A stretch of 64,000 nt of DNA, taken from sequence record NC_101837.1; one strand, given 5' to 3'. The stretch comes from a phage. Shown here in pieces: positions 11,586 through 27,818 of the stretch; position 1 is the first letter of the stretch; each line of letters begins with the position of its first letter. A program made the position numbers and the translations under genes. The notes beneath the pieces are model-generated. The model saw only the letters and a program-made list of their open reading frames with translations. It made no database searches and had not been told where the DNA came from.

Positions 11586-11593
11586 CAATTATA

Positions 11594-11616: not shown

Positions 11617-11630
11617 CTCTTGGAGGCACT

Positions 11631-12449
11631 TTGAGCAAGAAAGAGTCCAACGACAAATACTACACAAACCCTGAGTATGCAGAATATCTTGTTGGTAAAG
11701 TAAAAGATAAGTATGGGAATTGTGCATACGTTGAGCCTTCTGCTGGAAGGGGTTCTTTTTCAAAACTATTTTCAGAGATACTGTCGTACGATTTAGTACC
11801 AGATCCTGAATTTGAAGGACCAACACCGTGCATTCAGGCAAACTTCTTGGAGGTGCATCCCAAGGCAGATGTCTTCATAGGTAACCCACCATTTGGCAAG
11901 AATTCATCCTTAGCTTGCAAATTCTTTAACCATTGTGCATCATTGCTAGAGCTTGGAGGGGCTATAGCCTTCATCTTGCCACGGACATTTGAAAAAATAT
12001 TTTTTGCAAACAAACTGGACATGTCGATGCACCTTGTCTACAGCGAAAGGTGCCCTAAGAATTCGTTTTTACTTAATGGCAAACCTTATGACGTGCCATG
12101 TGTTTTCCAAATTTGGGAGAAAAAGGCGTGCAATAGGGATCCTGTAGAGATTGGAGAGAATAAGTTATTTTCTTTTAGCACACCAGATGACTACGACTTC
12201 TGTGTAAGACGTGTTGGGTATAATGCTGGAAAAGTATTGGGGGATGATGACCCAAAATCTGAAGAATCAACATATTTCATAAAATCTTTAGTTGACGGTG
12301 TTGACAGAGTGTTTGCTGAATGCTATTCTTCTTTTCAAGAAGAAGCAGGTAAGACTGCTGGAATGAAGAGTATAGGTAAGAAAGAACTACAATACATTTT
12401 GGAGACCAGGTATGATCAAAAGCATAGACTTGACCAAAGAACTTACTGA
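11631..12449 (+). CDS. DNA N6-adenine methyltransferase (putative)
   Basis: VEPSAGRGSF (AdoMet motif I-like) and FIGNPPFG (motif IV); TTG at 11631 after GGAGG; track start 11601 lies inside terminator. Confidence 0.6.
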   Translation: MSKKESNDKYYTNPEYAEYLVGKVKDKYGNCAYVEPSAGRGSFSKLFSEILSYDLVPDPEFEGPTPCIQANFLEVHPKADVFIGNPPFGKNSSLACKFFNHCASLLELGGAIAFILPRTFEKIFFANKLDMSMHLVYSERCPKNSFLLNGKPYDVPCVFQIWEKKACNRDPVEIGENKLFSFSTPDDYDFCVRRVGYNAGKVLGDDDPKSEESTYFIKSLVDGVDRVFAECYSSFQEEAGKTAGMKSIGKKELQYILETRYDQKHRLDQRTY

Positions 12450-12870
12450 TGCAAAAGCTTTTGGTGAGACAGCGGTACAAAGAGGACAGGCGATGGGACT
12501 GGCACTACCTTTCGTCTTAAAAGAGCACTTTACAGATTTTCAACTTATCAAAGGTGATAAGGGAATGCTTATCCTGGAGCATAAGTTGAGTAAGAAACGC
12601 TATAAAGTCGTTTTTAATTCTAAAGCTCCAACAAAACTGGGATTCAGAACTTACAATCTTAACCCATCCTACACTAAGGGTGTTGGAAGGGTAGAACAAC
12701 AGCATTTCAGTGCCAGAGCTTCTTTAGCCCCTTTGATGCTAAATTTCTCAGGGGTGGCTTTAGGATACCTTGATAAGAAAAGGGTTCTTCATGTTCGTTT
12801 CACAGACTTTGTAACGCTTTTAGCTAACAACGAGGTTGATGAGAAGGGACGTGTAAAAACAAACTTCTAA
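12412..12870 (+). CDS. hypothetical protein (152 aa)
   Basis: Tiled ORF. Confidence 0.45.
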   Translation: MIKSIDLTKELTDAKAFGETAVQRGQAMGLALPFVLKEHFTDFQLIKGDKGMLILEHKLSKKRYKVVFNSKAPTKLGFRTYNLNPSYTKGVGRVEQQHFSARASLAPLMLNFSGVALGYLDKKRVLHVRFTDFVTLLANNEVDEKGRVKTNF

Positions 12871-12897
12871 TAACGCATAGTATGATTGGAGACCGAA

Positions 12898-13089
12898 ATG
12901 ACACTAGAGTTAACAATTCCAGACAGCTTTTCAGAAAACTTTATCCCAGAAATGATGAGTAAGATGCGATCATTGCTTGATCAGATTGAGGAGGCTGTTT
13001 GGGAAGACGATGCTGTAGTGGCTAACGAGCTGGTAGATAAGTGTAAAAGTATTATTGATGCAGTTGAAGAATACCACGGAGGTTTTTAA
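12898..13089 (+). CDS. hypothetical acidic protein
   Basis: ATG 12898 preceded by GGAG; track start TTG 12886. Confidence 0.4.
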   Translation: MTLELTIPDSFSENFIPEMMSKMRSLLDQIEEAVWEDDAVVANELVDKCKSIIDAVEEYHGGF

Positions 13090-13703
13090 TGGATATTATT
13101 GTTCTTAACGCCCCACCCAGCAGTGGTAAGGATCACATTGCAGATCTCTTGTTGGAAGCTATTCCTAACTCACACCACCGTGAGGTTAAGGAAATGCTCT
13201 TCAGTGTGGCAATTAAGGCAGCTGGTGTAACTCCTCAACTCTGGAATGCACTTTATGACCGCCACTACAAAGAAGAGCCTTGCCCTTTCTTAATGATAGA
13301 CGGCAAGCATGTTTCTCCGCGAGAATGGATGATCCATTGTAGTGAAGATCTGATTAAACCTATCTTTGGTGAAGATGCTTTCGGTAAAGCCGCAGTCGCA
13401 TCTTTGAAGAAAGATTTTCCTGAAAGTAAAGGGGTTATTGTTTACTCCGATGGTGGATTTAAAGAGGAGCTGGCATGCCTTAGCGAGTACGCATACAGCA
13501 CAGGTGGAGATCTGTTGTTGTTCCGTATTCACCGTGTAGGATATGACTGGGGAAATGATTCCAGAACCTATCTAAGTCTGGAAAAGAACGGAATAAAAGG
13601 GGTTGAGTTTGATGTTGTAAACCCTGAAGGTGCACCTTGGGAGTGTGCATCGGAGATTGTGTGCAAGTATATTGATGCTAAAGAGGCCCAAGAAGAATGT
13701 TAA
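13089..13703 (+). CDS. deoxynucleoside monophosphate kinase (T4 gp1-like)
   Basis: P-loop NAPPSSGKDHIADLL resembles T4 dNMP kinase SGKD motif. Confidence 0.6.
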   Translation: MDIIVLNAPPSSGKDHIADLLLEAIPNSHHREVKEMLFSVAIKAAGVTPQLWNALYDRHYKEEPCPFLMIDGKHVSPREWMIHCSEDLIKPIFGEDAFGKAAVASLKKDFPESKGVIVYSDGGFKEELACLSEYAYSTGGDLLLFRIHRVGYDWGNDSRTYLSLEKNGIKGVEFDVVNPEGAPWECASEIVCKYIDAKEAQEEC

Positions 13704-14290
13704 TCGGAATTGATGTAGATTTGACACTGGTAGATTCAGGAACAGCATGGTGGGAGTGGTTGGAGCGTTTGTATGGTCCAGCCAGTAAGACAGTCGCTAA
13801 ACCTTCTAACGGACTGATGTATTACGATCTGTCAAAGTATTGGCCTGATCGCCCCAAAGAAAACATCATAGGGCCTTTTGATTTCTGGAGTGACCCGTTC
13901 CTTTACGACTTTCTTAAGCCTGAAGAGGGGGCTATTGAGGTTATGAAAGATTTGGTGGCTCGTGGTCACAAGCTTGCGTTTATCTCGGTATGCAAGAAAG
14001 GTCACCTTGCATCTAAATCAAGGTTCTTAAAGCGTTGGACCAGTGATTTTATGGATCTGGACGATCACACCCAGGGCCACGGATTCTACGCCACACATTT
14101 CAAAGGGAATGTGGCTGTAGATGTTATAATTGACGACAGGCATGAATACCTGAACCAATTCGCTTCACGACCTGAAGTTATTAAAATCCTAAAAGATACG
14201 CCTTATGAGCAATTCGAGGAGTTAAAGGTCAGTATTGACTATGCCGCTAATAGCTGGTATAAAATAGGAAAGTTTTTAGAAGGTATTTGA
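13697..14290 (+). CDS. HAD-superfamily phosphatase / 5'-nucleotidase
   Basis: N-terminal DxDxT motif (GIDVDLTLVDSG), C-terminal IIDDR. Confidence 0.6.
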   Translation: MLIGIDVDLTLVDSGTAWWEWLERLYGPASKTVAKPSNGLMYYDLSKYWPDRPKENIIGPFDFWSDPFLYDFLKPEEGAIEVMKDLVARGHKLAFISVCKKGHLASKSRFLKRWTSDFMDLDDHTQGHGFYATHFKGNVAVDVIIDDRHEYLNQFASRPEVIKILKDTPYEQFEELKVSIDYAANSWYKIGKFLEGI

Positions 14291-14291
14291 A

Positions 14292-14492
14292 ATGGGCAGA
14301 TGTTCTAAAGGTGGCGATCCTGTAGTCAGATACGGAGACTGGCTAGAGGTATATAATCTGGAGGGAAAGCTAGTGTATGCTTCCAGGATCACCCAGGATA
14401 TGTGCTCTGATATGTTTAACAGGTACCTTGCATTTAAGGCCAACATAAACCCAGACGAAATTTCCAAAATTAAAACAAGGAGAGCTAAATAA
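14292..14492 (+). CDS. hypothetical protein (66 aa)
   Basis: Tiled small ORF. Confidence 0.4.
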   Translation: MGRCSKGGDPVVRYGDWLEVYNLEGKLVYASRITQDMCSDMFNRYLAFKANINPDEISKIKTRRAK

Positions 14493-15475
14493 TGCTAAAA
14501 CTGTGCACTGCAAAGATTATTGCTGACAGCATTTCCGAGAAAGGTAAGCGTATAACCACTTTTGAGCTAGAGTATCCTAGAATCATTCACTCTGAACTCA
14601 TGACACACCGAGTTTTCAGCAGAAACGCCATGTCCTCTCGTGCAGTACCTGTTAACAAAATGCTGCAGCAGGTTGTGGAAAATCCTGCAATGCCAGTTCG
14701 TTTTGGTGTAAACCAGCGAGGTATGGAGGATGGTGGCGATCACGATCAGAAGATCCGTGTAGAGTATACTGATCTTGAGTTCTCTCCTGAAGAGTTCTGG
14801 AAAGAAGCTGCCAAAAATGCAGCCTGGCATGCAGAGAAGTTCGCACTTGCTGGTTACCATAAGCAAGTATGTAACCGCTTAGTGGAGCCTTTTCAGCGCA
14901 TGAAAACAGTTGTAACAAGCACCGAGTGGAATAATTTTTTCCACCTCCGTTGCTGGCACGATGCGGATCCTACGATTCAGATGTTGGCTAATTGTATGTG
15001 GGAGGCTCTTGGGAATAGCACTCCTGAAATCCTTAAACCGGGTCAATGGCACACCCCATATGTAGAGCACGTTTATTTGGACGGAGAGTTTAACTACGCT
15101 GTGCGTGACACAGAAGGAAAGCTCTGCATTCTCGATACTAAAGAAGCTCTGTCTATCAGTGCTAGTTGCTGTGCACAAGTATCTTATCGAAATATTGACA
15201 GCACGTTTGAAAAGGCAGACAGCGTGGCTAAAAAATTGATTGGTGGGGATCGTATTCATGCAAGCCCTTACGAGCACCAGGCAACACCCATGGATCACGA
15301 TAACGCAATGGAACGTTTAAACTACTACCTGTCTTCATGTGAAATCACACAAGACATCAGTACTTGGCAGGAAGGTGTAACCCATCAAGACCGTGATGGT
15401 AAATTCTGGTCTGCCAACTTTTGTGGGTGGGTTCAGCACAGACAACTGCTTAATAACCACTTCGTGAAAGGTTAA
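14492..15475 (+). CDS. thyX: flavin-dependent thymidylate synthase ThyX
   Basis: ThyX signature (T/R)HR-x7-S: THRVFSRNAMSSR; size consistent. Confidence 0.6.
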   Translation: MLKLCTAKIIADSISEKGKRITTFELEYPRIIHSELMTHRVFSRNAMSSRAVPVNKMLQQVVENPAMPVRFGVNQRGMEDGGDHDQKIRVEYTDLEFSPEEFWKEAAKNAAWHAEKFALAGYHKQVCNRLVEPFQRMKTVVTSTEWNNFFHLRCWHDADPTIQMLANCMWEALGNSTPEILKPGQWHTPYVEHVYLDGEFNYAVRDTEGKLCILDTKEALSISASCCAQVSYRNIDSTFEKADSVAKKLIGGDRIHASPYEHQATPMDHDNAMERLNYYLSSCEITQDISTWQEGVTHQDRDGKFWSANFCGWVQHRQLLNNHFVKG

Positions 15476-15504
15476 TCCTATCACAGCGATAGGTAACTTT
15501 TGTG

Positions 15505-15533
15505 TTGACTAATAGTATTAGATAATCTATAAT
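15505..15533 (+). promoter_or_regulatory. sigma70-like promoter
   Basis: TTGACT, 17-bp spacer, TATAAT. Confidence 0.65.
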
Positions 15534-15573
15534 AATGGCTCACTTTGTTAGTGAGCCAGAAATGGAGACAGAT

Positions 15574-16035
15574 ATGAGTAATGTTATGATTCCTAAAAAG
15601 ACATTTATTTCAGTTACTTTGGATTTCCTATCTACCGTTCCCGGGTTTAACGTTCGCACACGAAACGGTCTCCGAGCTGCACTCTTTGCCGTAGGGTTTG
15701 ATTTAAAAAGTATTGATGTTCTTCGTGGAAAAAACGTTCGATGCAAAAATAAGCCAACACATTATCGAAAGGCAGATGTATTTGCTGGTGTCATGCGTGC
15801 AGACTTTAGATACCCGCAAATGTATAACGGTGTAGATATTTTAGACGTAGATAAAGCACCCGGTGAGGCAATGCTTGTGCAAGATCTTCCGTATGATATC
15901 CCTGTAGAGGATCGTGTTAATGTAAGAAAGTATACAAAACAATCTGAAAAGGCTGAAGATATTCATATTGTTGATGAACCTTTCAATTTTGAAGATCTGC
16001 ATCGCCTGGAAAAATTATTCGGTATTGAAAGCTAA
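15574..16035 (+). CDS. hypothetical protein
   Basis: Track ORF 15535..16035; ATG 15574 has GGAG RBS and clears the -10 element. Confidence 0.45.
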   Translation: MSNVMIPKKTFISVTLDFLSTVPGFNVRTRNGLRAALFAVGFDLKSIDVLRGKNVRCKNKPTHYRKADVFAGVMRADFRYPQMYNGVDILDVDKAPGEAMLVQDLPYDIPVEDRVNVRKYTKQSEKAEDIHIVDEPFNFEDLHRLEKLFGIES

Positions 16036-16045
16036 GGTGGTGAAG

Positions 16046-16276
16046 ATGAGTCATAACTCCAAGTGGAAGGATCTTGGTTTTGCAAGTCGGGCAGAGTATG
16101 TTGGTTGGCTTTGGTTCAATGGCCTGACAAACGATATTAAAATGTATGATGATGTCTATTATGACGAGTATACAGGTAAAATTATAAATATCTCTGTAGA
16201 AGAGGATACTTTTATCCAGCAAGATACTGATACCTGCCTTGATAAATACGTTAGTGAAGTGGAGGAAGCAAATTGA
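16046..16276 (+). CDS. hypothetical protein (76 aa)
   Basis: ATG after GGTGGTGAAG; internal start in track ORF 15968..16276. Confidence 0.4.
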   Translation: MSHNSKWKDLGFASRAEYVGWLWFNGLTNDIKMYDDVYYDEYTGKIINISVEEDTFIQQDTDTCLDKYVSEVEEAN

Positions 16277-18588
16277 TCACCAAGGTAATTAAAAGCAACG
16301 GATGTGAAGTGGCATTCGATCCAGAACGTTTAAATAAGGCAGCTATTTTCGGTGACGACGGTAACGGCAATTGGTCACATATTGCACTGGATGCCTACAA
16401 GCGGTTGTATGATGGATGTACAACCAAAGAAGTTAACCAAGCTATTATAGACTCTTGTGTTAGCCGTAAAGACGAAGCACATTCCCGTATGGCTGGTCGT
16501 GTTCTTATTGGTCAGATTTATAAAGAGGCTTTTGGAGGGTTTACAAAGATCCCTTCCTTACCATCATTTTACAATACCATGGTTGAGAAAGGGTATTGGG
16601 AGGATATGGGCTATAGCTTTACCGAGCTAAACACTTTAGACGCTGTTATTGACCACAGTAAAGATCTCGGTTATGGCTATGCAGTCCTTAAACAGTTTCG
16701 CGACAAATACGGGATCAAGGATACTCTTAAAGACACCCTGTTTGAATCTCCCCAGATGATGTTTATGGGGATAGCAATGGCTGTCATGAAGAATATGCCG
16801 AAAGAACGTCGTATCAACGATGTTGTAAAATTATACACTTATCTGTCCGACTTAAAGATCAATGCCCCGACACCGTACTTAAACGGGCTGCGCACAGGTA
16901 AGACAGGGTATGCATCTTGTTGTGTAATAAAAGCTGACGATACAGCAAAATCTATTGGTGTGGCACGTGAAGTTGCGTACACAATGACGGTTAACCAAGC
17001 AGGTATCGGCTACTACTTATCCTCAAGATCTGCAGGCGATGGTGTTCGTGGTAACACTATTAAACATATGGGTAAGATTCCATATTATCGAGGTATTGAT
17101 GCTGGTGTTAAGGAGAACAGACAACAATCACGTGGCGGTTCTGCAACAGTATCATTCCTTGCACTGGACCCGCAGATTGATGAGCTAATCCGTTTGAGAA
17201 ACCCTATGACTGTTGCTTCAAAAAGAATCAACACCATGGACTACTCCATCGGTATTAATAGGTCGTTTATCAACCGTGTGGCTAAGAATTTAGATTGGAT
17301 GCTTGTTTCTTATAAGCACGCTCCTCAACTGCATGAGGGTATCTTCACCATGTCTATGGAGGAGTTCGATGCAGAGGTTGAGCGTATTGCTAAAGATGAC
17401 AGTATTCCTAAAACATGGATCCGAGCCAGAGATCTTGCTGTTGAACTGATCACGCAGCGTACTGAGGTGGGAAGGCTGTATGTATACTGGACAGATGAGA
17501 TGAATAGACATACACCTTTTAAAGATGTGATCTATTCAAGTAACCTGTGTGCAGAAATAGCCCTCCCGACAAAAGGCTATTCAGATATGCGTAATATCTT
17601 CAAGTACGATGCTGATGATGGAGAGGTTGCATTGTGCTTCCTGTCATCTCTTGTAGCTGGAAGGGTTACTCCAGAGGAGTATGAGGATGTTGCATACTAC
17701 ACGGTGCTTATGATTGACAATGTTATGGAAATCATGACATATCCGTATGAAAATATGGAAAGCACAGTTAAAAAACGCAGATCCATCGGGGTTGGCCTTA
17801 CCAATGTTGCACATTTTATTGCCAGCCACAAGGTTACTTACGGGTCTCCTGAAAGTAAACAGCTCGTTCACGATCTTGCAGAACTTCACAGCTACAGCTT
17901 GCATAAGGCAAGTTTACGGTTGGCAAAAGAGCGTGGTGTCTGCGAGTGGATGCATAAAACAAAATATCCAGAAGGTTGGTTACCAATCGACACCTATAAC
18001 AAAGAGGTCGATAGCGTGGTGAAAGATCCTTCTCTTAAACAGGATTGGGAAGGGTTACGTAAAGAAATCATTGAGAATGGTGGGCTACGTAATAGCGTTC
18101 TTGAAGCATATATGCCTAATGAAAGCTCTTCGCTGGCAACAAACACCACTAACGGGGTTTATCCTGTCCGTGAGCACATTATCTTTAAAAAGTCGCCACA
18201 AGGGCAGGTGCTGTTTATCGTTCCTGACTATGATGAGTTGAAAGAGTATTACACCTCGGCTTGGGACGTTGATACTAACGACATGATCGATATGTATGCC
18301 GTGATTCAAAAATTCACAGGTCAGGCAATCAGCGCGGATTTATACATAGACTACACCAAGTTGAAAGATGGTAAAATTTCAATGAAGGAGCAGTTAGGGT
18401 ACCTTATCCGTGCCACTAAATTCGGGATGAAGACATGGTATTATTTAAACTCTAGGGTTGGTGCTGGTGACTCCTTGGCAGAGGAACTTCATGCCAAGAA
18501 ACAGGCTGAAGATGAAACCAGAAAGAACTATCCTTTGATTGCAGATAGTTCAGTTGAAGATCCGTATTGCGAAAGCTGTGCACTATAA
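16273..18588 (+). CDS. nrdA: ribonucleotide reductase class Ia large subunit
   Basis: 771 aa, N-terminal ATP cone, NLCAEIALP active-site region, C-terminal CESCAL. Confidence 0.9.
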   Translation: MITKVIKSNGCEVAFDPERLNKAAIFGDDGNGNWSHIALDAYKRLYDGCTTKEVNQAIIDSCVSRKDEAHSRMAGRVLIGQIYKEAFGGFTKIPSLPSFYNTMVEKGYWEDMGYSFTELNTLDAVIDHSKDLGYGYAVLKQFRDKYGIKDTLKDTLFESPQMMFMGIAMAVMKNMPKERRINDVVKLYTYLSDLKINAPTPYLNGLRTGKTGYASCCVIKADDTAKSIGVAREVAYTMTVNQAGIGYYLSSRSAGDGVRGNTIKHMGKIPYYRGIDAGVKENRQQSRGGSATVSFLALDPQIDELIRLRNPMTVASKRINTMDYSIGINRSFINRVAKNLDWMLVSYKHAPQLHEGIFTMSMEEFDAEVERIAKDDSIPKTWIRARDLAVELITQRTEVGRLYVYWTDEMNRHTPFKDVIYSSNLCAEIALPTKGYSDMRNIFKYDADDGEVALCFLSSLVAGRVTPEEYEDVAYYTVLMIDNVMEIMTYPYENMESTVKKRRSIGVGLTNVAHFIASHKVTYGSPESKQLVHDLAELHSYSLHKASLRLAKERGVCEWMHKTKYPEGWLPIDTYNKEVDSVVKDPSLKQDWEGLRKEIIENGGLRNSVLEAYMPNESSSLATNTTNGVYPVREHIIFKKSPQGQVLFIVPDYDELKEYYTSAWDVDTNDMIDMYAVIQKFTGQAISADLYIDYTKLKDGKISMKEQLGYLIRATKFGMKTWYYLNSRVGAGDSLAEELHAKKQAEDETRKNYPLIADSSVEDPYCESCAL

Positions 18589-18593
18589 TTTTA

Positions 18594-18614
18594 AAGGGGC
18601 TTCGGCCCCATTTT
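18594..18614 (+). terminator. putative intrinsic terminator
   Basis: GGGGC-TTCG-GCCCC hairpin followed by ATTTT. Confidence 0.6.
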
Positions 18615-18626
18615 AGAGGTAGAATA

Positions 18627-19715
18627 ATGGCTGTATTTAATGCTGAGAACACCGCTCATAAAACTGGTGACTATCCGCTGTTTCTGGGACAGCAAATGGG
18701 TATGTACGACTCTATCAACAAAAAATATCCACAACTGTTTGAACTATACAAAAAACAAAAAGAGCAAGATTGGGCAGAGGATGAAGTGGATTTGTCGCAA
18801 TCTATTTCAGATTTTGTAACATGCTCAAAGTCAACTTATGACGTGATGGTGCAGACCTTGATGTGGCAATGGGAGGCTGATAGCGTTGCGGCAAGATCGA
18901 TCATCTGCCTCTTTTCACCATTCATCACTAATAGTGAGCTTTTCACTCTATTGATGAAACAGTCAGAGATTGAAGTTCTTCACGCACTAACTTACTCAGA
19001 GATTGTTAGACAATGCCTCCCTAATGCCCGTGAGATTATAGAAGAGATTCAGGAAAACCAAAACGTTCTGAGCAGATCCGGAGTTATTGTCAAATACATG
19101 CAAGAGCTTGAGGTTATTGGTGCAAAATACCGACTGGATCCTTCTAGTGTTGAAGAAGATGTTGTGCGGAAATGCATTCTTAGAGCGCTTTTTGCACTTT
19201 TAGCTCTGGAAAGTATTGAGTTTATTGCAAGTTTTGCATGCACTTTCGCAGTAGCTGAACAGGGTATCTTTGTTCAGGTGGCGCAGCTTGTTCAAAAAAT
19301 CATGCTTGACGAAATGCTACATTCGAAAGGTGATTTTGCCATCATTGATATCTTGCTTAATGATCCCGCATGGGAGAAAAGCTTCCTTGAGATAAAGGGG
19401 GAGTTAAAAGAGATTCTTGATGAAGTACGAACCAAAGAGTACGGTTGGAGTGACTATATTTTCAGCGAAGGAAGAGCGATTATAGGTCTTAACTCACCGT
19501 TGCTTAAAGAGTGGGTTGACTATAACTGCTCACCGATTTATGATTACTACGACATCGACAAAGACTTTGTGCCGCCAACAAAGGACCCGCTACCGTTTAT
19601 GCAGGTGTGGATGAAACCTTCATTGCAACAGACGGCGAACCAAGAAATGTCGAACACTGACTACCGCGTCAACACAACTGTTAACGACGCTGAAGAAGAA
19701 ATTTGGGAGTTTTAA
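18627..19715 (+). CDS. nrdB: ribonucleotide reductase class Ia small subunit
   Basis: MAVFNAENTAHKTGDYPLFLGQ... NrdB-like; ATG 18627 after terminator (track start 18567 is inside hairpin). Confidence 0.9.
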   Translation: MAVFNAENTAHKTGDYPLFLGQQMGMYDSINKKYPQLFELYKKQKEQDWAEDEVDLSQSISDFVTCSKSTYDVMVQTLMWQWEADSVAARSIICLFSPFITNSELFTLLMKQSEIEVLHALTYSEIVRQCLPNAREIIEEIQENQNVLSRSGVIVKYMQELEVIGAKYRLDPSSVEEDVVRKCILRALFALLALESIEFIASFACTFAVAEQGIFVQVAQLVQKIMLDEMLHSKGDFAIIDILLNDPAWEKSFLEIKGELKEILDEVRTKEYGWSDYIFSEGRAIIGLNSPLLKEWVDYNCSPIYDYYDIDKDFVPPTKDPLPFMQVWMKPSLQQTANQEMSNTDYRVNTTVNDAEEEIWEF

Positions 19716-19718
19716 TAT

Positions 19719-19997
19719 ATGAGCTGCGAAAAATCTTTTTTCATCATCATTTACGGTAAGGATAACTGCCCACATTGTGTCAGAGCAAAAGAATTTGCAA
19801 TCAGCAAAGGTCTGCCTTTTGTATATAAGACACTTGGCGAGGGCTACACAAAAGAAGAGCTTATTGAGAAGTGTAGTCCAATCGTCCCCAGAACGTTGCC
19901 GCAGATCTTCTTAGAAAGCGATCTTGACAGTGTCCATATAGGCGGTGCAGACGATTTCATCTCTTTTGTTAAGAATGGTTTTGGAGAGAAAAAGTGA
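19719..19997 (+). CDS. glutaredoxin / NrdH-like redoxin
   Basis: CPHC active site near N-terminus, 92 aa, between nrdB and nrdD. Confidence 0.7.
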   Translation: MSCEKSFFIIIYGKDNCPHCVRAKEFAISKGLPFVYKTLGEGYTKEELIEKCSPIVPRTLPQIFLESDLDSVHIGGADDFISFVKNGFGEKK

Positions 19998-20854
19998 AAG
20001 TTGTAAAACGGGACGGTAGAGAAGAGTTTTATAACGGAATTAAGGTGATCAAGGCGGCAGAGTCCGCCTTACTTGAGTCTGGACATACTGAAGAAGAAGC
20101 TTACCGGATAGCTTGTGCAGTTAATGAAGTTGTTGCTAACAATCTACCAACCGACCAGTGCACGATCTCTGTAAAAAATATCCATATCCTTGTTGAAGAT
20201 GCTCTTATGGATATGGGTTTAAAATGTGCAGCCAGAGAATACATCCAGTATAGACAGACAAGAGATAATAACAGAGAGGCAGGTGGAAAACTGCTTGCAG
20301 ATATTAGTGGCTTCTTGGATCGAACTTGTGATGAATTTACAAAAGAAAACGCAAATAAGCCTACTAATCATGTACACACTCATCGCGACCTGCTTGCAGG
20401 CATCCTTAGCAAACACCTTGCATCAACACAGATCCTGCCAGACCGTGTTTCAGAAGAGCACAATAAAGGCTTCATCCATGTGCATGATCTTGACTACTTG
20501 ATCAGTCCGTTAACAAACTGTTGTTTGGTAAATTATCCAGATATGTTGGAAAACGGATTCAACATTGGCAACGCCCATGTCAGTAAGCCGAAGTCAATAG
20601 GGGTTGCAACAACAATCCTTAGTCAAATCTCTAGCGCGGTAGCTAGTGCTCAATATGGTGGTCAGACTATGAGCCATATTGATCATTATCTGGCACAGTA
20701 TGCTGAAGCAACCTATGAGAAGAACCTTAAATTTTGCCAGGAACATTGGTTGCCGGATGCTGAAACTGTTGCAATGCAAATGACAGATAAAGACGTGTTT
20801 GACAGCATGCAGACGTTGCTTTATCAGATCAACACACTAACCTCGGTAAACGGT
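19994..20854 (+). CDS. nrdD: anaerobic ribonucleotide reductase NrdD, exon 1
   Basis: N-terminal ATP cone (VVKRDGREEFYNGIKV); frame ends at TAA 20855-20857 inside putative intron. Confidence 0.75.
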
Positions 20855-21105
20855 TAACAAACTGGCCGTTTTAAAACTCTGCTAACCTCAGTATGAGGGG
20901 TCAGCTGATCGCTGGCTAACGGGGAACGCTAAGGCGAAAGCTATGCCAATCCCGTGACTAGCTTCACAAGGAGTGAGGCGGTTGTAACGACTAACCTTTT
21001 GGTGTAGGGATTATGGAAGATTCCGAAACGCAGGGGTCTGATTAAGAATCACACGGTGTGATTTCAGGCAAGAGATAGTCTGGCCTTGTGGAAACATAAG
21101 GGTGG
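20855..21105 (+). ncRNA. putative ORF-less group I intron interrupting nrdD
   Basis: About 250 nt between nrdD frames; GTGACTAGC (P7 5' strand-like) and AAGAGATAGTCTGG (P7 3' strand-like); boundaries inferred from U before 5' splice site and G before exon 2, +/- a few nt. Confidence 0.55.
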
Positions 21106-22374
21106 GGACCGCAAACCCCTTTTATCACATTAAGTTTAGGTTTGGACACTTCGGTCTTTGGTAGAATGATTACCAAAAATTACTTGAAAGTCCACAAAAT
21201 GGGTCTTGGTGAAGAACGTATCACACCTGTGTTCCCTAAAGTGCTGTTCTTCCTGGAAGAGGGTGTCAACATGAACCCTGGGGATCCTAACTATGATTTG
21301 AAACGATTAGCTCTGGAATGCTGTGCAGAACGTATCTATCCTGACTTCGTATCTGTACCACTAAATAGAAAAGTGACAGGCTCGACAGATGGCAAAGTAA
21401 CTAGCATGGGTTGCAGGAGTTTTCTTAGCAAATACAATGACTTGGAAACAGGCGAGGAGAAATACCTTGGCAGATTTAACTTAGGCGTTGTTAGCCTTAA
21501 CCTGCCAATGATTGCGGCAAAAGCTAAGACGGAAGGTGTTGATTTCTTTGCAGTTCTTGACGAATACTTGGATCTTGCATATGAGGCTCACCTTGTAAGG
21601 GTTAACCGTCTAAAAGGAACAAAGGCAGGGCAGAACCCCATCATGTGGTGTGAAGGCGCTCTTGCTCGCCTGGATCCTGAAGAGAGTATTGATAAACTCT
21701 TCTATGACGGGTACGCTTCCATCAGTATTGGGTATATTGGTGTGTATGAAACCTGTCAGATTTTGGGCAGAGAGGGTGACAAGGCTTTAGCTCTTGGAAT
21801 CCTTCAGCACATGAGAGATGCTTGTGAGCGATACAAGAAGGAAAGTAGACTAGCATTTAGCTTGTACGGCACTCCTTCTGAGAGTCTATGCTATAAAGCT
21901 GCAACCTGTCTGGATCGTGAATATCCGGAAGTGTTGAAGCACGAGCATGAATATCTCACCAACAGTTTCCATCAGCCAGTGTGGATAAATAGCTCTCCTT
22001 TTGATAAGTGGGAGTATGAGGAAGGTTTTGCTATGATCTCCTCTGGTGGCAACATTGGATACGTAGAGACACCTAACCTGAAAAACAACCTGGATGCTTT
22101 AGAGGCTCTTGTTGACTTCGGGTATAAACATATTATGTATTTTGGTATTAACCAACCTGTGGATAAATGTCTCAAGTGTGGTTTCTCTGGTGAGTTCAGT
22201 GCAACAGCTAAAGGGTTCTGCTGCCCTGCGTGCGGATGCCACGATGAACAATATATCTCAGTGATCCGAAGAGTGTCTGGATATCTTTCCAGTCCTAACT
22301 CCCGTCCTTACAATAAAGGTAAGCAAGCGGAAGTTATCGAGCGAGTTAAGCACTACGGAAGTTGTGGTTGCTGA
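21106..22374 (+). CDS. nrdD: anaerobic ribonucleotide reductase NrdD, exon 2
   Basis: Exon-2 frame opens at 21100 (GWGPQTPF...) upstream of track start 21142; C-terminal glycyl-radical motif RVSGYL. Confidence 0.7.
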   Translation, partial: GPQTPFITLSLGLDTSVFGRMITKNYLKVHKMGLGEERITPVFPKVLFFLEEGVNMNPGDPNYDLKRLALECCAERIYPDFVSVPLNRKVTGSTDGKVTSMGCRSFLSKYNDLETGEEKYLGRFNLGVVSLNLPMIAAKAKTEGVDFFAVLDEYLDLAYEAHLVRVNRLKGTKAGQNPIMWCEGALARLDPEESIDKLFYDGYASISIGYIGVYETCQILGREGDKALALGILQHMRDACERYKKESRLAFSLYGTPSESLCYKAATCLDREYPEVLKHEHEYLTNSFHQPVWINSSPFDKWEYEEGFAMISSGGNIGYVETPNLKNNLDALEALVDFGYKHIMYFGINQPVDKCLKCGFSGEFSATAKGFCCPACGCHDEQYISVIRRVSGYLSSPNSRPYNKGKQAEVIERVKHYGSCGC

Positions 22375-22411
22375 TACTTGACAAAAGCCACAAGGATGTG
22401 GCACTATACAG

Positions 22412-23404
22412 ATGTTTAGGGAAGTTAGGAAACAAGAAATGGCTAAATTATCAACAGAAGAGTTTATAGAGAAGGCGAAAATCATTCACGGTTATAAATA
22501 CGATTACACGAAAACAGTGTACGTGGATTGCTATGCGAAGGTTTGCATTACCTGCCAAATCCATGGGGATTTTATGCAAGCACCTTGTAAACACTTGCAA
22601 GGTCGTGGTTGTCCTTTTTGTGCAAAACTTTCTCGTGCTGCAAAGTGTAATAAAGGTCTTAAATTTGTAGAAAGGGCCAAAGAAATCCATGGAGATAAAT
22701 ATGACTACTCTCTCGTATACTACAAGACTTGCAAAGACAGGGTAGAAATAATCTGCAACACTTGTGGAAATCACTTTACACAGACACCTGATAACCATAT
22801 AAATTTGAAAAGAGGTTGTCCAGTTTGCAAGGGGTCAAGAATCTCACAAAGTAAAACATCACCACACGAAAAGTGGGTTGAGTCCATAAGAAGTAGAAAT
22901 CCTTATGTTGAGATATTGGAAGAAATTATTGGGTGGGATAAGAAAGTCCTGTGCTGCTGTAAAGGTTGTAGCCACACATGGTTAACCGTACCAAGCAGTC
23001 TTAAGCAGGGACATGCTTGCCCTAGATGCGCTAAAACAGGATTTTTATCACACGATAACGGAAAACTCTACATTATGGTTGATGATCCAGAAGTACCTAC
23101 ATTTATGAAAATAGGGGTCAGTCATAATGAAAGTAAGCGAAGAGACCAGATACTTAAAAGTGCACAAAGATCTAGAGCTGGTATCCGCGATCTTCACATA
23201 GTGAAAACGTTGGAAGGATCAACTGAAAACATGCTGGCTGTAGAAAAATCTATGCACAAAGCCTTCAGTAAATATAAAATAAACTTCCCTGTAAAATTTG
23301 ATGGTAGTACCGAATTCTTTAACTACAGACCTGAAGTGTTCAGTATGGTAGAATCAGCGCACAGAGAGATTTGTTGTAAACATAGGACAGGTAATAACCT
23401 GTAG
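22412..23404 (+). CDS. homing-endonuclease-like protein: three zinc fingers plus T5orf172 (GIY-YIG-like) domain
   Basis: Three CxxC...H...C..C repeats, then KLYIMVDDPEVPTFMKIGVS ... GSTEFF typical of T5orf172. Confidence 0.6.
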   Translation: MFREVRKQEMAKLSTEEFIEKAKIIHGYKYDYTKTVYVDCYAKVCITCQIHGDFMQAPCKHLQGRGCPFCAKLSRAAKCNKGLKFVERAKEIHGDKYDYSLVYYKTCKDRVEIICNTCGNHFTQTPDNHINLKRGCPVCKGSRISQSKTSPHEKWVESIRSRNPYVEILEEIIGWDKKVLCCCKGCSHTWLTVPSSLKQGHACPRCAKTGFLSHDNGKLYIMVDDPEVPTFMKIGVSHNESKRRDQILKSAQRSRAGIRDLHIVKTLEGSTENMLAVEKSMHKAFSKYKINFPVKFDGSTEFFNYRPEVFSMVESAHREICCKHRTGNNL

Positions 23405-23452
23405 AGCCATATATCAACCTTTAAACATGTTATAAACTAAAGGAGGTGCAGC

Positions 23453-23569
23453 ATGTCATCAGGCATTTATAAAATTTGCAAGTGTGGTTGTCGTTGCAAT
23501 CTTCGTTGGTGCAAGGCACTGGACGATTTTATTTGGCATTGCCCTGAATGTGATACGGAGTATCTATGA
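23453..23569 (+). CDS. small Cys-rich zinc-ribbon protein (38 aa)
   Basis: AAGGAGG RBS then MSSGIYKICKCGCRCN...CPECDTEYL; ATGA overlap with nrdG start. Confidence 0.45.
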   Translation: MSSGIYKICKCGCRCNLRWCKALDDFIWHCPECDTEYL

Positions 23570-24039
23570 ACATTGTCGGATACACAGAAGTATCTTACAC
23601 AGAAGGGCCAGGTATTAGAACTGCCTTGTGGGTATCTGGGTGCCCACACGCTTGCCCTGGTTGCTTTAATCAGGCATTTTGGTCAAAAGATAAGGGGAGG
23701 GAGTTCACTGAAGAAGATTTGCAAAAAATCTTGTCAGATCTGGATAACCCGTCTGTGTGCGGTATCTCTCTGCTGGGTGGAGAACCCTTAGCATACTATA
23801 ATGAGCCAGGTATTATTAGCCTGATGGAGAAAATTAAGGAAAAATTTGGTGACAAGAAAACTATTCTTGTATATACTGGGTTCACATTTGACCATATCTC
23901 TAGTGATGTTCTTAAACTGGCTGATATCATCATTGACGGTAAGTATGTAAAAGATTTACCAACCAAGAAACCGTTCCGAGGCAGTGATAACCAAAGAATG
24001 TTTAAAAAAGTATCAGGCGGTTGGGTTCAGGTAGACTAG
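23566..24039 (+). CDS. nrdG: anaerobic RNR activating protein (radical SAM)
   Basis: CPHACPGCFN cysteine cluster and GISLLGGEPL motif. Confidence 0.8.
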   Translation: MNIVGYTEVSYTEGPGIRTALWVSGCPHACPGCFNQAFWSKDKGREFTEEDLQKILSDLDNPSVCGISLLGGEPLAYYNEPGIISLMEKIKEKFGDKKTILVYTGFTFDHISSDVLKLADIIIDGKYVKDLPTKKPFRGSDNQRMFKKVSGGWVQVD

Positions 24040-24042
24040 TTG

Positions 24043-24072
24043 TTGACAAAGCTTTGTTTAGATAGGTATAAT
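24043..24072 (+). promoter_or_regulatory. sigma70-like promoter with palindrome at -35
   Basis: TTGACA, 18-bp spacer, TATAAT; 12-bp palindrome ACAAAGCTTTGT overlaps -35. Confidence 0.65.
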
Positions 24073-24103
24073 TATCGTAAAATGAAAGCAGAGGAGGTGC
24101 CAA

Positions 24104-24217
24104 ATGGCTAAAAAAGCCTTGAAGAAGGCGTACAAGAAAGAGATTGCGCTTGAGCTTAAGAAAAAACACAAGCGTGAAAAGAAACATCATGAAGATGAAG
24201 AGGGGGTGCAACAGTGA
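24104..24217 (+). CDS. small lysine-rich peptide (37 aa)
   Basis: GAGGAGG RBS, MAKKALKKAYKKEIALELKKKHKREKKHHEDEEGVQQ. Confidence 0.4.
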   Translation: MAKKALKKAYKKEIALELKKKHKREKKHHEDEEGVQQ

Positions 24218-24564
24218 CACAAGAACGTATCGATTTGGCTAATAAGTTTGTAGACCTCATTTTGCCACGGTTAGTTACTCAACATGCAGATGCTATTTCT
24301 ACTAATCTTGATGGCTTACGCCTAATGCTGAATCGCACAGATGACCCTCGTATTCGGGCTGATTTAGAAGCCTCTGCCAACAAACTGGAAAAGTTCTTGC
24401 AAGTAGACACGCAAGAAGCCTTGCACAAGATTATGGTGGAAGGTTTCTCTAAAGAATTTACCATTAAAGAGCTTAAGGAGCTGATCCACCAAGAAGAGAT
24501 GAATATCCGAGTTCAGGCTGTTGCAAGCAGCATGGAAGCGGCTATTGAAAAACTGTTGCAGTAA
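24214..24564 (+). CDS. hypothetical protein (116 aa)
   Basis: GTG start overlapping upstream stop. Confidence 0.45.
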   Translation: MTQERIDLANKFVDLILPRLVTQHADAISTNLDGLRLMLNRTDDPRIRADLEASANKLEKFLQVDTQEALHKIMVEGFSKEFTIKELKELIHQEEMNIRVQAVASSMEAAIEKLLQ

Positions 24565-24602
24565 AAGTACTTGGCACATCTCAATCTGAAAGGAGTCCCA
24601 AC

Positions 24603-25391
24603 ATGGGTCGAGCTAAAGAAACAAAACGCATGCGTGATGAAGCTAGAGAGGCTCGCAAATCTGATCGCCTGCGTAAGGCTGCTGAGAAATTTGCTGACGA
24701 AAGAGAGCACACCGCTCCAGCTCTCCGACCAATGAATAAGAAGCAGCAAAAGTATCTTGATTATCTAGGGTCACGTAAGATTATTATTGTAAACGGCGTG
24801 TTTGGATCCGGTAAGACATTTATGGCATCTGCATATGCAGGTGATCTTCTGCGTAAGAACGAGATTGATAAGATCATTGTTGCACGTCCTTACGTCCAGA
24901 CAGGAAAGACTTCAGGATTTAAACCCGGAAATGCAATGCAGAAACTGTGGCCCTATCTTCGAAGCATGATGGACACGATTTGTCGTCGTGTTGGCAAAGG
25001 TGCTTTTGCCGCAATGCTGGGAGACGGTCAGAACAGTCGTATCGAGATTTGTGAAGTTGAAAGCATTCGTGGTCGTAGTTTCGATGAGCGATGCTTTGTC
25101 CTGATTGACGAGGCACAGCAAACTAACCCTGAAGAAATGTTGTCAATTATCACAAGGATCTCTGATCAAGCCACCCTTGTAATTATGGGTGATAATAGCC
25201 AACGTGACATCCCTGGTAAATCTGGCCTTGCATGGGTGACGGATTTCTTTACTCGTCATCCAGATCCTGAGGTTGGAATGATCAGCTTTGATAGTCCAGA
25301 CGATGTCGTTCGTTCCGGGTTGGGTCGTCAAATCGCACTCAATCTTATTGAGGATCGTGCAAATCATATTTGGACCCCTGTTTCCGAGTAA
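24603..25391 (+). CDS. phoH: PhoH-like ATPase
   Basis: Walker A VNGVFGSGKTFMA, Walker B FVLIDEAQ. Confidence 0.8.
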   Translation: MGRAKETKRMRDEAREARKSDRLRKAAEKFADEREHTAPALRPMNKKQQKYLDYLGSRKIIIVNGVFGSGKTFMASAYAGDLLRKNEIDKIIVARPYVQTGKTSGFKPGNAMQKLWPYLRSMMDTICRRVGKGAFAAMLGDGQNSRIEICEVESIRGRSFDERCFVLIDEAQQTNPEEMLSIITRISDQATLVIMGDNSQRDIPGKSGLAWVTDFFTRHPDPEVGMISFDSPDDVVRSGLGRQIALNLIEDRANHIWTPVSE

Positions 25392-25396
25392 TACAG

Positions 25397-25420
25397 AAGG
25401 GTGGTTATTCCACCCTTAAA
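25397..25420 (+). terminator. putative terminator hairpin
   Basis: GGGTGG/CCACCC stem with TTATT loop after phoH stop. Confidence 0.5.
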
Positions 25421-25435
25421 TATCTAAAACAGTTG

Positions 25436-25464
25436 TTGACAAACAGGTAAGCTTTAGATATTAT
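25436..25464 (+). promoter_or_regulatory. sigma70-like promoter
   Basis: TTGACA, 17 bp, TATTAT. Confidence 0.6.
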
Positions 25465-25494
25465 TATCGGACAAGACAAGGAGAAGGAGATAGT

Positions 25495-25806
25495 ATGGCT
25501 ACAATACAAGAGAGACTGAATAAAATATACTGCCTGTTTGTCTATAACGGCGAGACAATTTTGGCAAATAAAGGATCCAAGAATGTGTGGATCAAGGACA
25601 GCGGTGGTAATATAATCAACTTAGCGTTGCTACGTGAGCGCCGACACAGATTCTTTATCGAGTCTCGAATTATTGAAAGCAGCACTTGCTACAGAACAGG
25701 CGATAAAGTAATTGTTGACAATGATACGTGGTATGTGGTAGATTGGCAATCATTGAGTTGTGATGCTTCTGACAATCGTAAGTACTCCATAGTGATTGCT
25801 AAATAA
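25495..25806 (+). CDS. hypothetical protein (103 aa)
   Basis: ORF after promoter with GGAGAAGGAGA RBS. Confidence 0.45.
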   Translation: MATIQERLNKIYCLFVYNGETILANKGSKNVWIKDSGGNIINLALLRERRHRFFIESRIIESSTCYRTGDKVIVDNDTWYVVDWQSLSCDASDNRKYSIVIAK

Positions 25807-25866
25807 AGGTAAATGTGAATCAGGTTTAAATAAATAGCTTTCAACTTCCAATATTAAGGATTTCTC

Positions 25867-26916
25867 ATGAATTTAACACCTCGCAGCACCATGGTACACG
25901 GCATGAAAGAAAAACAGAACGGTTTCGAACCTATGAGTAATAAAATGTTTGGTATGCCGGGCGGTATCATGGAAACATACAGCTACCCAACACCTGTTGT
26001 TGACCACGTTCTTTATATCGACGATTTGGAGGACCTGCAGGATCATATGTCTCGTCTGCAGACGATCCGTATGGCTCAGCCGGAAGAAAGCATTCGTGTG
26101 ATCATCAATAGCCCTGGTGGTTGCGTGCACATTGCAATGGCCTATCTGCAGGCATTCCGCGAGTCTCAGGCAAGCGTTGTTGCACATGCTGAAGGGATGT
26201 GCTGCTCTGCTGGAACAATCTTATGGCTTGGTTGCAAAGAACGTACTGTGGCTCCGGACACAGAATTTATGTTCCACTACTATCAAGGTGGCACTTATGG
26301 TAACGGTGTTAACATGAATACTCAGGTCAGCTACTGGAAAAAACGTTTTGAACACCTGATCGAAAAATACTACGGTGGGGTGCTGACAGAAGATGAGATC
26401 GCATCCATCACAGCTGGTGGCGAAGTGTGGTTGGACGGAGAAGAGTTGGCAGCACGCACTGGAGCTATTATTCTGGATGAAGGCAACATACAACGCATCC
26501 AGAACGGACAAAAACCGAAAAAGCTTCTGGCAAAAGGTGATGAAGAAGGCGTGTTAGGTGAAGCAGGTCTTCCGGAGATTCATCAGTGCACATCTTTAGA
26601 TGAGTTAGTTCATGCTGTTGAATCTGCAAAAGCGGGTGGTTCGAAAGGTGATGTTCACACTGTGTTCCTGAATCTGCAGATGGAAAGTGGCGAGACCGTC
26701 CGAATTGCCCTGGGTGAGATTACTTCAGAAGATCTGCAGAGATTCTCTGTCGTTGAACTTCAGGATATTCTGTCTCAATTGAAGACTACTCTGAACGGCG
26801 GTGAAGAGGTTAAGGTGAAAGATAAGACTCGCAAGCGTCTTGTGGACAATATTATTAAAACAGCAAAAGAGCTCAATGAAAAAATCCTTGGTGCAGGAAT
26901 TGTCGAAGAAGCTTAA
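25867..26916 (+). CDS. ClpP-family serine peptidase with C-terminal extension
   Basis: INSPGG, catalytic-Ser region AEGMCCSAGTILWLG, His region MFHYYQGGTYG; about 150-aa acidic extension. Confidence 0.65.
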   Translation: MNLTPRSTMVHGMKEKQNGFEPMSNKMFGMPGGIMETYSYPTPVVDHVLYIDDLEDLQDHMSRLQTIRMAQPEESIRVIINSPGGCVHIAMAYLQAFRESQASVVAHAEGMCCSAGTILWLGCKERTVAPDTEFMFHYYQGGTYGNGVNMNTQVSYWKKRFEHLIEKYYGGVLTEDEIASITAGGEVWLDGEELAARTGAIILDEGNIQRIQNGQKPKKLLAKGDEEGVLGEAGLPEIHQCTSLDELVHAVESAKAGGSKGDVHTVFLNLQMESGETVRIALGEITSEDLQRFSVVELQDILSQLKTTLNGGEEVKVKDKTRKRLVDNIIKTAKELNEKILGAGIVEEA

Positions 26917-26927
26917 ACATTAATTCT

Positions 26928-26952
26928 AAAGCCCTCTTCGGAGGGCTTTTAT
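26928..26952 (+). terminator. intrinsic terminator
   Basis: AAAGCCCTC-TTCG-GAGGGCTTT then T run. Confidence 0.6.
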
Positions 26953-26967
26953 GATCTGGAGATTTGC

Positions 26968-27501
26968 ATGACTTGTGCTAGAAAACCTGATGAACAACGT
27001 AACGCCTACGATGAGTATGTGACACCGGAATGGTGTGCAGAAGGGCTGTATGACCTTATTCCGTTCCCAGAAGACTGGACCTACTTAGAGCCTTGCAGGA
27101 ATAGTGCCTCAGGTGTGTTCTACTCCCGTATGCCGTTAGGATCTGCATGGGGAGAAATCCAAGAAGGTGTTGACTATCTGAATACAGAATACAACCATGT
27201 TGACTGTATTATCACCAACCCGCCGTACAGCCTGGCTCGTGAGTTTGTGAACAAGGCGTTGAAAGATGCCGACGTAGTTATTATGCTTTTGCGTCTTAAT
27301 TTTCTGGAAAGCAAAGCCAGATTTGAATGGTGGCTTGATAATGCACCTACTACTGTGATCACAATATCTAAGCGTCCATCATTTCAATCAAACGGCAGAA
27401 CTGACGGGCAAGCATATGCATATTTTGTGTGGGATAAGAAAAACCGTTTAGACTTGCCGCCGTTTATGTGGTTGGCACCCCCAGAGGTAGACCTGAAATG
27501 A
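26968..27501 (+). CDS. small DNA N6-adenine methyltransferase (phage Dam-like)
   Basis: IITNPPYS motif; 177 aa. Confidence 0.5.
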   Translation: MTCARKPDEQRNAYDEYVTPEWCAEGLYDLIPFPEDWTYLEPCRNSASGVFYSRMPLGSAWGEIQEGVDYLNTEYNHVDCIITNPPYSLAREFVNKALKDADVVIMLLRLNFLESKARFEWWLDNAPTTVITISKRPSFQSNGRTDGQAYAYFVWDKKNRLDLPPFMWLAPPEVDLK

Positions 27502-27782
27502 AAATGAGTGCTAAGGACAAATTACACCAGCTAGCGCTAAAACGCCCTGTAACGCTCCCTGACGAGCTTAACTCCATTTATGATGCGATTGTAGGGGAGA
27601 TACAAAATAAAGCGTTAGCAGGCTTTCTGGGGTGCGGATTTTCGATAAATCTACCCTCGCATCTCTCAGATTACTTCCCGCACATTGTTGGAGATTTAAG
27701 GGCAGGAGGTCTGCAGGTAGATGTTGTTGGCATCTCCCCAGAGAAAAATAATACGGTTGCCTACTTGACAGTAACCTGGTAG
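27498..27782 (+). CDS. hypothetical protein
   Basis: Internal ATG of track ORF 27468..27782. Confidence 0.4.
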   Translation: MKMSAKDKLHQLALKRPVTLPDELNSIYDAIVGEIQNKALAGFLGCGFSINLPSHLSDYFPHIVGDLRAGGLQVDVVGISPEKNNTVAYLTVTW

Positions 27783-27818
27783 TTGTGTATTGTTGTTTTC
27801 AACAAGAGGGGGTCATTT

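Follow-up and report, generated by a model that had tools for sequence, protein, structure and literature searches.

Two orphan adenine DNA methyltransferases with different predicted specificities in an rV5-like coliphage

A 64,000-nucleotide stretch of the phage sequence record NC_101837.1 (the window, in what follows) carries two open reading frames (ORFs), ORF1 and ORF2, that are likely to encode orphan N6-adenine DNA methyltransferases of different specificity. Both would methylate the phage's own DNA, ORF2 at GATC and ORF1 most probably at GTAC, with a conditional benefit against nucleases. A first-pass annotation of the window had proposed two adenine methyltransferase genes, one with an NPPF and one with an NPPY motif; both ORFs do occur at the positions it gave, on the + strand, with the two motifs inside them (Table 1). 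Neither ORF is a chance match, because each agrees strongly with a PHROG profile (ORF1 with phrog_5172 at 4e-129; ORF2 with phrog_799, 'DNA methyltransferase', at 8e-67), each has many homologs in a large protein database with invariant catalytic motifs (792 and 291, respectively), and both genes are 94–99% identical across ~120 Vequintavirus records. In GenBank records of related phages the two genes are labeled 'putative N6 adenine methyltransferase', 'DNA methyltransferase', or 'SAM-dependent methyltransferase'. In the phage the two are orphans: neither has an adjacent gene for a cognate restriction endonuclease.

The evidence for specificity comes largely from a close relative. Positions 11000–28000 of the window match 156 phage records, 113 of which have a single place covering at least 80% of the query, mostly at 95–99% identity; nearly all matched records are Vequintavirus, the rV5-like myoviruses of E. 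coli. Over its full length, the window aligns in reverse orientation, at 96–98% identity, to positions 135818 to 70663 of Escherichia phage WalterGehring (MZ501111), and locus tags identify WalterGehring as Bas51 of the BASEL collection. By sequence comparison, the window is assigned to a Vequintavirus with Bas51/WalterGehring as its best match (~97–98% identical). Three Bas51 genes are annotated as adenine methyltransferases: bas51_0176, bas51_0200, and bas51_0070. ORF2 differs from bas51_0176 by two substitutions, N94D and V174A, and shares with it D69, D79, T83, the NPPY motif, and the ClpP-like protease gene upstream. ORF1 differs from bas51_0200 at 1 of 272 residues.

Nakamura et al. (PLoS Biol 2025; PMC12548924) reported that Bas51 escapers of the retrons Asa1 and Squ1 were all mutated in 'an adenine methyltransferase gene', and that D69G, D79G, and T83P, rebuilt in a clean background, each abolished retron defence. 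In translations of the three Bas51 candidates, positions 69, 79, and 83 are D, D, and T in bas51_0176, Q, A, and I in bas51_0200 (as in ORF1 itself), and C, G, and E in bas51_0070. Because only one of the three has D, D, and T, the published escape mutations, which cause loss of function, belong to the ORF2 ortholog, bas51_0176; their placement in bas51_0200, the ORF1 ortholog, or in bas51_0070 was rejected for mismatched residues. The nanopore source data for Fig 4f of the same study, in which an N6-methyladenine (6mA) site is one with >60% methylation, list 1405 sites at GATC, 509 at GTAC, and 576 others in wild-type Bas51, against 35, 511, and 349, respectively, in the T83P phage (PMC12548924), so that 227 of the other calls are lost in the mutant. 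GATC occurs 703 times in the Bas51 genome and GTAC 258 times, offering 1406 and 516 methylatable adenines, respectively; with 1405 of 1406 and 509 of 516 adenines called, both motifs are essentially fully methylated in Bas51 DNA. The host strain, MG1655, is dam+. Even in this host, methylation of GATC in Bas51 requires the ORF2 ortholog, and that of GTAC does not. By analogy with its 99%-identical ortholog, ORF2 is taken to be the GATC enzyme of the phage studied here. The earlier proposal that the two genes encode DNA adenine methyltransferases of different specificity is thus borne out in the relative, whose DNA has two distinct m6A motifs and, in the T83P mutant, loses methylation at GATC while GTAC is spared. 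The outcome that would have told against it, an absence of methylated motifs attributable to either gene, is already contradicted for ORF2 by the loss of GATC 6mA in T83P Bas51 (PMC12548924).

The assignment of GTAC to ORF1 proceeds by a different route. Starting from the host side of the relative's DNA, two candidates can be delimited. No methyltransferase for GTAC is known from E. coli K-12, whose enzymes are Dam, Dcm, EcoKI, and a silent YhdJ. Since K-12 makes no GTm6AC, GTAC methylation of Bas51 DNA is phage-encoded, and since it is also independent of ORF2, the candidates are ORF1 and bas51_0070. Between these, ORF1 is the probable GTAC enzyme, a somewhat less certain point than the two-enzyme explanation as a whole. 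It is favored because the methylation does not require ORF2, the rival enzyme is Mod-like, the structural model of ORF1 resembles M.TaqI, a PADLOC methyltransferase model matches it, its bacterial relatives have partners of the restriction-modification (RM) type, and the loci that contain those partners are depleted in GTAC.

Structure prediction casts ORF1 as a compact, monomer-type enzyme like M.TaqI and M.BseCI, with a small C-terminal target-recognition domain. The order of its motifs is that of the gamma class, with motif I, EPSAGRG, N-terminal to NPPF. The AlphaFold2 model (predicted local distance difference test score 93) has the M.TaqI-like architecture of a Rossmann-fold catalytic domain followed by a C-terminal target-recognition domain, and it aligns over 229–245 residues with M.TaqI, M.BseCI, MmeI, and CamA, the recognition domain included. 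The PADLOC Type II methyltransferase model PDLC03255 (MTase_II), which has no curated cutoff, matches ORF1 over its full length at 3e-34. The resemblance to gamma-class enzymes of the M.TaqI, M.BseCI, and M.CviBIII type is nevertheless distant. Identity is only 15–20%, ORF1 has 272 amino acids (aa) against 382–544 in the solved chains of the M.TaqI/M.BseCI type and scores below every Pfam threshold, and its probable target is GTAC, as opposed to TCGA or ATCGAT. A sequence search of ORF1 against PDB chains gave nothing useful, and the BFVD viral fold search returned only uncharacterized or generic methyltransferase matches. The family PF26055 is precomputed for many ORF1 homologs, but a Pfam scan of four of these did not report it, and the literature searched does not mention it.

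The bacterial relatives of ORF1 provide a second line of evidence. A scan of one genome per species yielded 80 loci with ORF1 homologs, many of them in Sphingomonas and other Alphaproteobacteria, and neighboring ORFs, up to 400 bp from the methyltransferase gene, were clustered across all 80. Single neighborhoods are mixed: the homologs P0175 and P0176 have no recognizable RM partner, P0238 lies in a T4-like phage contig, and P0217 is beside a type I RM system and has a 199-aa ORF downstream that became interpretable only after clustering. One neighbor family dominates, with 21 proteins (median 213 aa) from 20 of the 80 loci, 15 of which are encoded directly downstream of the methyltransferase gene on the same strand. 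Three of the 21 are large outliers joined by few links, namely proteins of 377 aa (locus L026), 449 aa (L086), and 397 aa (L051). The L026 outlier is upstream and corresponds to a Methylase_S gene at that position in L011, and the first ~100 residues of the L051 outlier match the partner family. The typical partner is a protein of ~210 aa with the motifs HGKxFE...D...PTSIK...NPKIDSKxQRRLQCS, which accompanies methyltransferases of the ORF1 family in a diverse set of bacteria. Its invariant residues are H, G, E, K, K, and those of a Q-R-Q-C block, and an E...D...SIK motif is present. The partner lies just downstream of the methyltransferase gene in L020, L026, L034, L046 (for example, L046:4774-5445), L047, L050, L056, L057, L061, L064, L065, L079, L084, and L088. 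The family has no match in Pfam, NCBIfam, or the PDB, and one member weakly matches the PADLOC Type II restriction enzyme model PDLC03460 (REase_II) at 9e-8. Judged by sequence and gene order, it is probably an unannotated family of type II restriction endonucleases, possibly specific for GTAC, and part of the ORF1 family appears to belong to ordinary two-gene type II RM systems. The 152-aa gene downstream of ORF1 in the phage was considered as a restriction enzyme and rejected, being unrelated to this partner family (hhalign probability 0.1%).

Depletion of GTAC, formulated as an a priori hypothesis, was evaluated among the 16 four-base palindromes against a maximal-order Markov expectation. 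In the 20 partner loci, GTAC is the most depleted of these palindromes, with 92 sites observed and 194 expected (0.48), whereas the ratio in the other 60 loci is 0.82; only 0.015% of 20,000 random 20-locus subsets were as low in GTAC (permutation p 1.5e-4). The effect is uneven and is absent at the Poseidonibacter locus (19 observed, 18.8 expected), which counts against the GTAC assignment. The depletion is, for this reason, supporting evidence and not proof.

Other points also weigh against ORF1 as the GTAC enzyme. ORF1 belongs to no Pfam family at threshold (the best, Eco57I (PF07669), scores 15.5 bits against a cutoff of 25.3, and N6_Mtase (PF02384) likewise falls short) and has no NCBIfam match. 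The literature searched contains no direct assay of ORF1, and the retron paper assigns the GTAC motif to no gene (PMC12548924). Literature searches linking rV5 or Vequintavirus to GTAC or RsaI yielded nothing pertinent; a marine metaepigenome paper refers to GTAC only in passing. Bas51 does encode the competing bas51_0070, a 441-aa beta-class protein that matches PF01555 at 4e-42 and whose ortholog would lie outside the window. Were this type III Mod-like enzyme the source of GTAC methylation, the target of ORF1 would be found among the 'other' 6mA calls, or ORF1 would be inactive on phage DNA in the laboratory. The 349 'other' calls in the T83P phage have no assigned enzyme (PMC12548924), as such a scheme would allow. 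The nearest relatives of bas51_0070, however, are genes for a 'type III RM methylation subunit' in Campylobacter phages, and in its N-terminal part the protein shares 34% identity with P1 Mod. The sites read by enzymes of the type III Mod class are normally short and asymmetric. Beta-class enzymes with GTAC at the core of their site may exist, M.KpnI (GGTACC) being a possible example. Matches at ≥90% identity occur in 87 phage records for bas51_0070 and 120 for ORF1, and it is the ORF1 family that is paired with restriction-enzyme-like genes in bacterial loci specifically depleted in GTAC. We therefore consider it doubtful that bas51_0070 is responsible. Like ORF1 and ORF2, it is a phage-borne orphan adenine methyltransferase from the same type of genome; it differs from them in its class (DPPF precedes FGGSGTT; PF01555), its length, its relationship to P1 Mod, and its position beyond the window. 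A further alternative, that ORF1 methylates rRNA or tRNA instead of DNA, is very improbable. Some ORF1 homologs are labeled 'predicted RNA methylase' by JGI, one phage record has 'RNA methylase', and NPPF is also found in m2G rRNA methyltransferases. RNA methyltransferases of the METTL5, PH1948, and KsgA-Erm types nonetheless align with only ~150 of the 272 ORF1 residues, while the full-length structural matches, C-terminal domain included, are the DNA methyltransferases M.BseCI, MmeI, M.TaqI, and CamA, in agreement with the full-length PADLOC match to a Type II DNA methyltransferase. Bacterial homologs of ORF1 moreover adjoin restriction-enzyme-like genes, some within RM islands, and the apparent membership of part of the family in two-gene type II RM systems likewise speaks against the RNA label.

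ORF2 is an enzyme of another build. Its predicted structure is a catalytic-domain-only Rossmann fold of the M.TaqI type with no separate target-recognition domain, and the best structural match is the catalytic domain of M.TaqI; a sequence search against PDB chains gave nothing useful. The motif order is again that of the gamma class, with EPCRNSASG N-terminal to NPPY, and T83, N84, P85, and P86 are invariant in an alignment of 50 family members. Unlike enzymes of the M.TaqI/M.BseCI type, ORF2 has no recognition domain of any kind; loops with the conserved R109, R118, R136, and RPSF segment are candidates for taking its place. The description of ORF2 as 'Dam-like' in the first-pass annotation is correct as to target, given the bas51_0176 data, and fails as to family. 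ORF2 shares with the classical alpha-class enzymes (E. coli Dam, T4 Dam, DpnM) the product G-m6A-TC on double-stranded DNA, but it is not a member of that class by sequence or predicted fold, and it matches no classical Dam model in the Pfam and NCBIfam scans. The closer comparison is with the small phage Dam family PF05869/TIGR01712, whose members are likewise phage-borne, ~170–240 aa long, and equipped with an N-terminal TP motif and NPPY or DPPY. Characterized members, such as the Dam enzymes of phages T1 and HP1, methylate GATC. Profile matches to this family are weak for ORF2 and a homolog (7e-4 and 1.6e-5), and the scores of ORF2, 19.8 bits against a cutoff of 28.1 for PF05869 and 17.2 against 97.05 for TIGR01712, argue against membership; since they lie under the curated cutoffs, ORF2 is at most a distant relative of the family. 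Like ORF1, it attains no curated threshold in Pfam or NCBIfam.

The two proteins resemble each other only marginally (BLASTP E = 0.008, around motif IV). Different motif spacing had been put forward as the trait that sets them apart, but motif I and motif IV are separated by similar distances, ~50 residues in ORF1 and ~43 in ORF2, in identical order. The real difference is architectural and consists in the C-terminal target-recognition domain, predicted in ORF1 and lacking in ORF2. The count of two methyltransferase genes is accurate for the window only, as the closest relative has two more, ~3–6 kb beyond the equivalent of the window's 3′ end (position 64000). In Bas51 (MZ501111), positions 64456–65781 encode the 441-aa beta-class, type III Mod-like adenine methyltransferase (PF01555) discussed above, and positions 67042–67806 encode a Dcm-like C5-cytosine methyltransferase that has PC and ENPVG motifs and no Pfam match. 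With this third adenine methyltransferase and the cytosine enzyme, phages of this type have up to four DNA methyltransferases.

What the phage gains from these enzymes is best approached through a model in which ORF1 and ORF2 would both methylate its own replicating DNA. ORF2 would carry GATC methylation to completion, beyond the reach of host Dam on fast-replicating phage DNA, and ORF1 would make GTm6AC, the mark present at ~99% of the GTAC sites of Bas51. Methylation could then shield both motifs from host nucleases that attack them in unmethylated form, such as restriction enzymes of the MboI/DpnII and RsaI/KpnI types and possibly MutH at GATC. The benefit would be conditional, and its cost would be that some retrons sense GATC methylation, a cost shown for Bas51 (PMC12548924). 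By analogy with other phage methyltransferases, an anti-restriction role for ORF1 and ORF2 is plausible. The RM systems of the BASEL study reportedly have recognition sites without GATC or GTAC, so that susceptibility to them neither supports nor refutes this role. Even so, the description of Vequintavirinae as 'exceptionally susceptible' to RM systems in that study weighs against it, as does the normal plating of the GATC-deficient Bas51 mutant on a retron-free control (PMC12548924). The one demonstrated consequence of ORF2-type activity is a liability, the triggering of retrons Asa1 and Squ1 by the ORF2 ortholog, and the Bas51 methyltransferase is toxic when expressed alone (PMC12548924).

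A less likely reading is that the chief use of methylation lies not in anti-restriction but in DNA transactions of the phage itself, such as timing or packaging signals, or in the evasion of host factors outside RM, such as MutH and SeqA acting at un- or hemimethylated GATC. In the T83P phage, host Dam leaves GATC almost unmethylated (35 of 1406 adenines), so that MutH- or SeqA-like factors would see this DNA differently. ORF1 and ORF2 both lie inside a block of replication and nucleotide-metabolism genes, and Vequintavirinae are not notably RM-resistant in the BASEL study. Such a function would not be essential, however, since methyltransferase point mutants form plaques at the wild-type level when no retron is present (PMC12548924). 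GATC and GTAC sites in the window, moreover, show no clustering beyond chance, and so give no hint of a methylation-controlled regulatory region. That the ORF2 gene is kept despite triggering retrons argues instead for a conditional, defence-related benefit.

The features that define the two genes are collected in Table 1.

Table 1. Coordinates of ORF1, ORF2, and associated sequence elements in the window.
Feature	Residues (aa)	Position	Strand	Remarks
Terminator-like hairpin upstream of ORF1		11593–11612	+	AGGGAGGC-TTGC-GCCTCCCT, with a T-rich run after it; separates the DnaQ-like exonuclease gene from ORF1
ORF1	1–272	11631–12449	+	Predicted gamma-type (M.TaqI-like) N6-adenine DNA methyltransferase; TTG start; 271/272 aa identical to bas51_0200; probable GTAC enzyme
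ORF1 motif I, EPSAGRG	35–41	11733–11753	+	AdoMet-binding loop; E35, P36, G39, G41 invariant in 56 homologs
ORF1 motif IV, NPPF	85–88	11883–11894	+	GNPPFG invariant in 56 homologs
ORF1 C-terminal domain	~170–272	12138–12446	+	Predicted target-recognition domain
Hairpin upstream of ORF2		26928–26949	+	AAAGCCCTC-TTCG-GAGGGCTTT; separates the ClpP-like protease gene from ORF2; read from the sequence, missed by a consensus scanner
ORF2	1–177	26968–27501	+	Predicted methyltransferase, catalytic domain only; ATG start; 175/177 aa identical to bas51_0176 (GATC enzyme of Bas51)
ORF2 degenerate motif I, EPCRNSASG	41–49	27088–27114	+	E41, P42 nearly invariant in 50 homologs
ORF2 catalytic segment		27172–27228	+	D69, 27172–27174; D79, 27202–27204; T83, 27214–27216; NPPY (aa 84–87), 27217–27228

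The longest reading of ORF1 opens at TTG 11601. The start at TTG 11631 is preferred because GGAGG (11622–11626) precedes and serves it and the terminator-like hairpin lies just upstream; an equivalent coding sequence of 819 nt with this same start is annotated in GenBank relatives. The ATG start of ORF2 is served by GGAG at 26958–26961, 6 nt upstream. Each of the two genes is directly preceded by a strong GC-rich hairpin with a tetraloop (TTGC or TTCG) and a T-rich tail, and both hairpins read as intergenic terminator-like or RNA-stability elements inside long co-directional gene blocks. In the phage, the neighbors of ORF1 are the DnaQ-like exonuclease gene and the gene for the 152-aa hypothetical protein, and ORF2 has the ClpP-like protease gene on one side and, on the other, a small gene for a hypothetical protein. 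Synteny between the ORF2 and ClpP-like protease genes extends to the Klebsiella, Cronobacter, Salmonella PVP-SE1, and Av-05 relatives, and homologs at ~47% identity are also found in phi92 and Phapecoctavirus phages. Farther downstream, positions 28721–29254 are the equivalent of bas51_0171, a 'putative glycosidase' gene ~1.2 kb downstream of the ORF2 ortholog in Bas51; truncation of this Bas51 gene by an early stop codon (R87*) likewise abolishes defence by retron Asa1 (PMC12548924).

Several further observations concern the genome at large. Although the window is in general poor in GTAC (observed/expected 0.65), its densest GTAC patch, at 44482–44781, has five sites in 300 bp against ~0.6 expected. 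In the region 19994–23404, the gene for the anaerobic ribonucleotide reductase, nrdD, is split into two ORFs, 19994–20857 and 21142–22374, after which comes an ORF of 330 aa matching a Bas51 'putative homing endonuclease'. In relatives nrdD is annotated as a two-piece join, in some with an HNH gene in the gap; Rfam models at gathering thresholds gave no match in the window, including no intron model at the split nrdD. More than 20 GenBank records in the range MG065635–MG065690 ('Campylobacter phage A138, A13b, C12 ...') are 97–99% identical to E. coli rV5-like phages in this region, and their Campylobacter jejuni label probably reflects mislabeling or contamination with E. coli phage.

The finding of two adenine methyltransferase genes is correct but ordinary, as all of its substance is already annotated or published. 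What is added here is small: ORF1 is probably linked to GTAC, and an unannotated restriction-enzyme-like family accompanies its bacterial relatives. There is about an even chance that the broader picture these suggest is right, namely that ORF1 belongs to a compact (~260 aa) family of GTAC-specific gamma-class type II methyltransferases whose bacterial members are paired with a ~210-aa endonuclease family not represented in Pfam, NCBIfam, or the PDB, and that the 177-aa ORF2, with no recognition domain, achieves complete and largely specific GATC methylation, placing it among the smallest sequence-specific DNA methyltransferases. The current understanding of phage methyltransferases is unchanged, and the practical value is modest. 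For DNA of rV5-like phages, full m6A at GATC and GTAC is to be expected, with consequences for restriction mapping, cloning, nanopore base-calling, and the engineering of host range. As a documented trigger of retrons, the GATC enzyme is also relevant to the range of hosts that resist these phages, which are popular for therapy.

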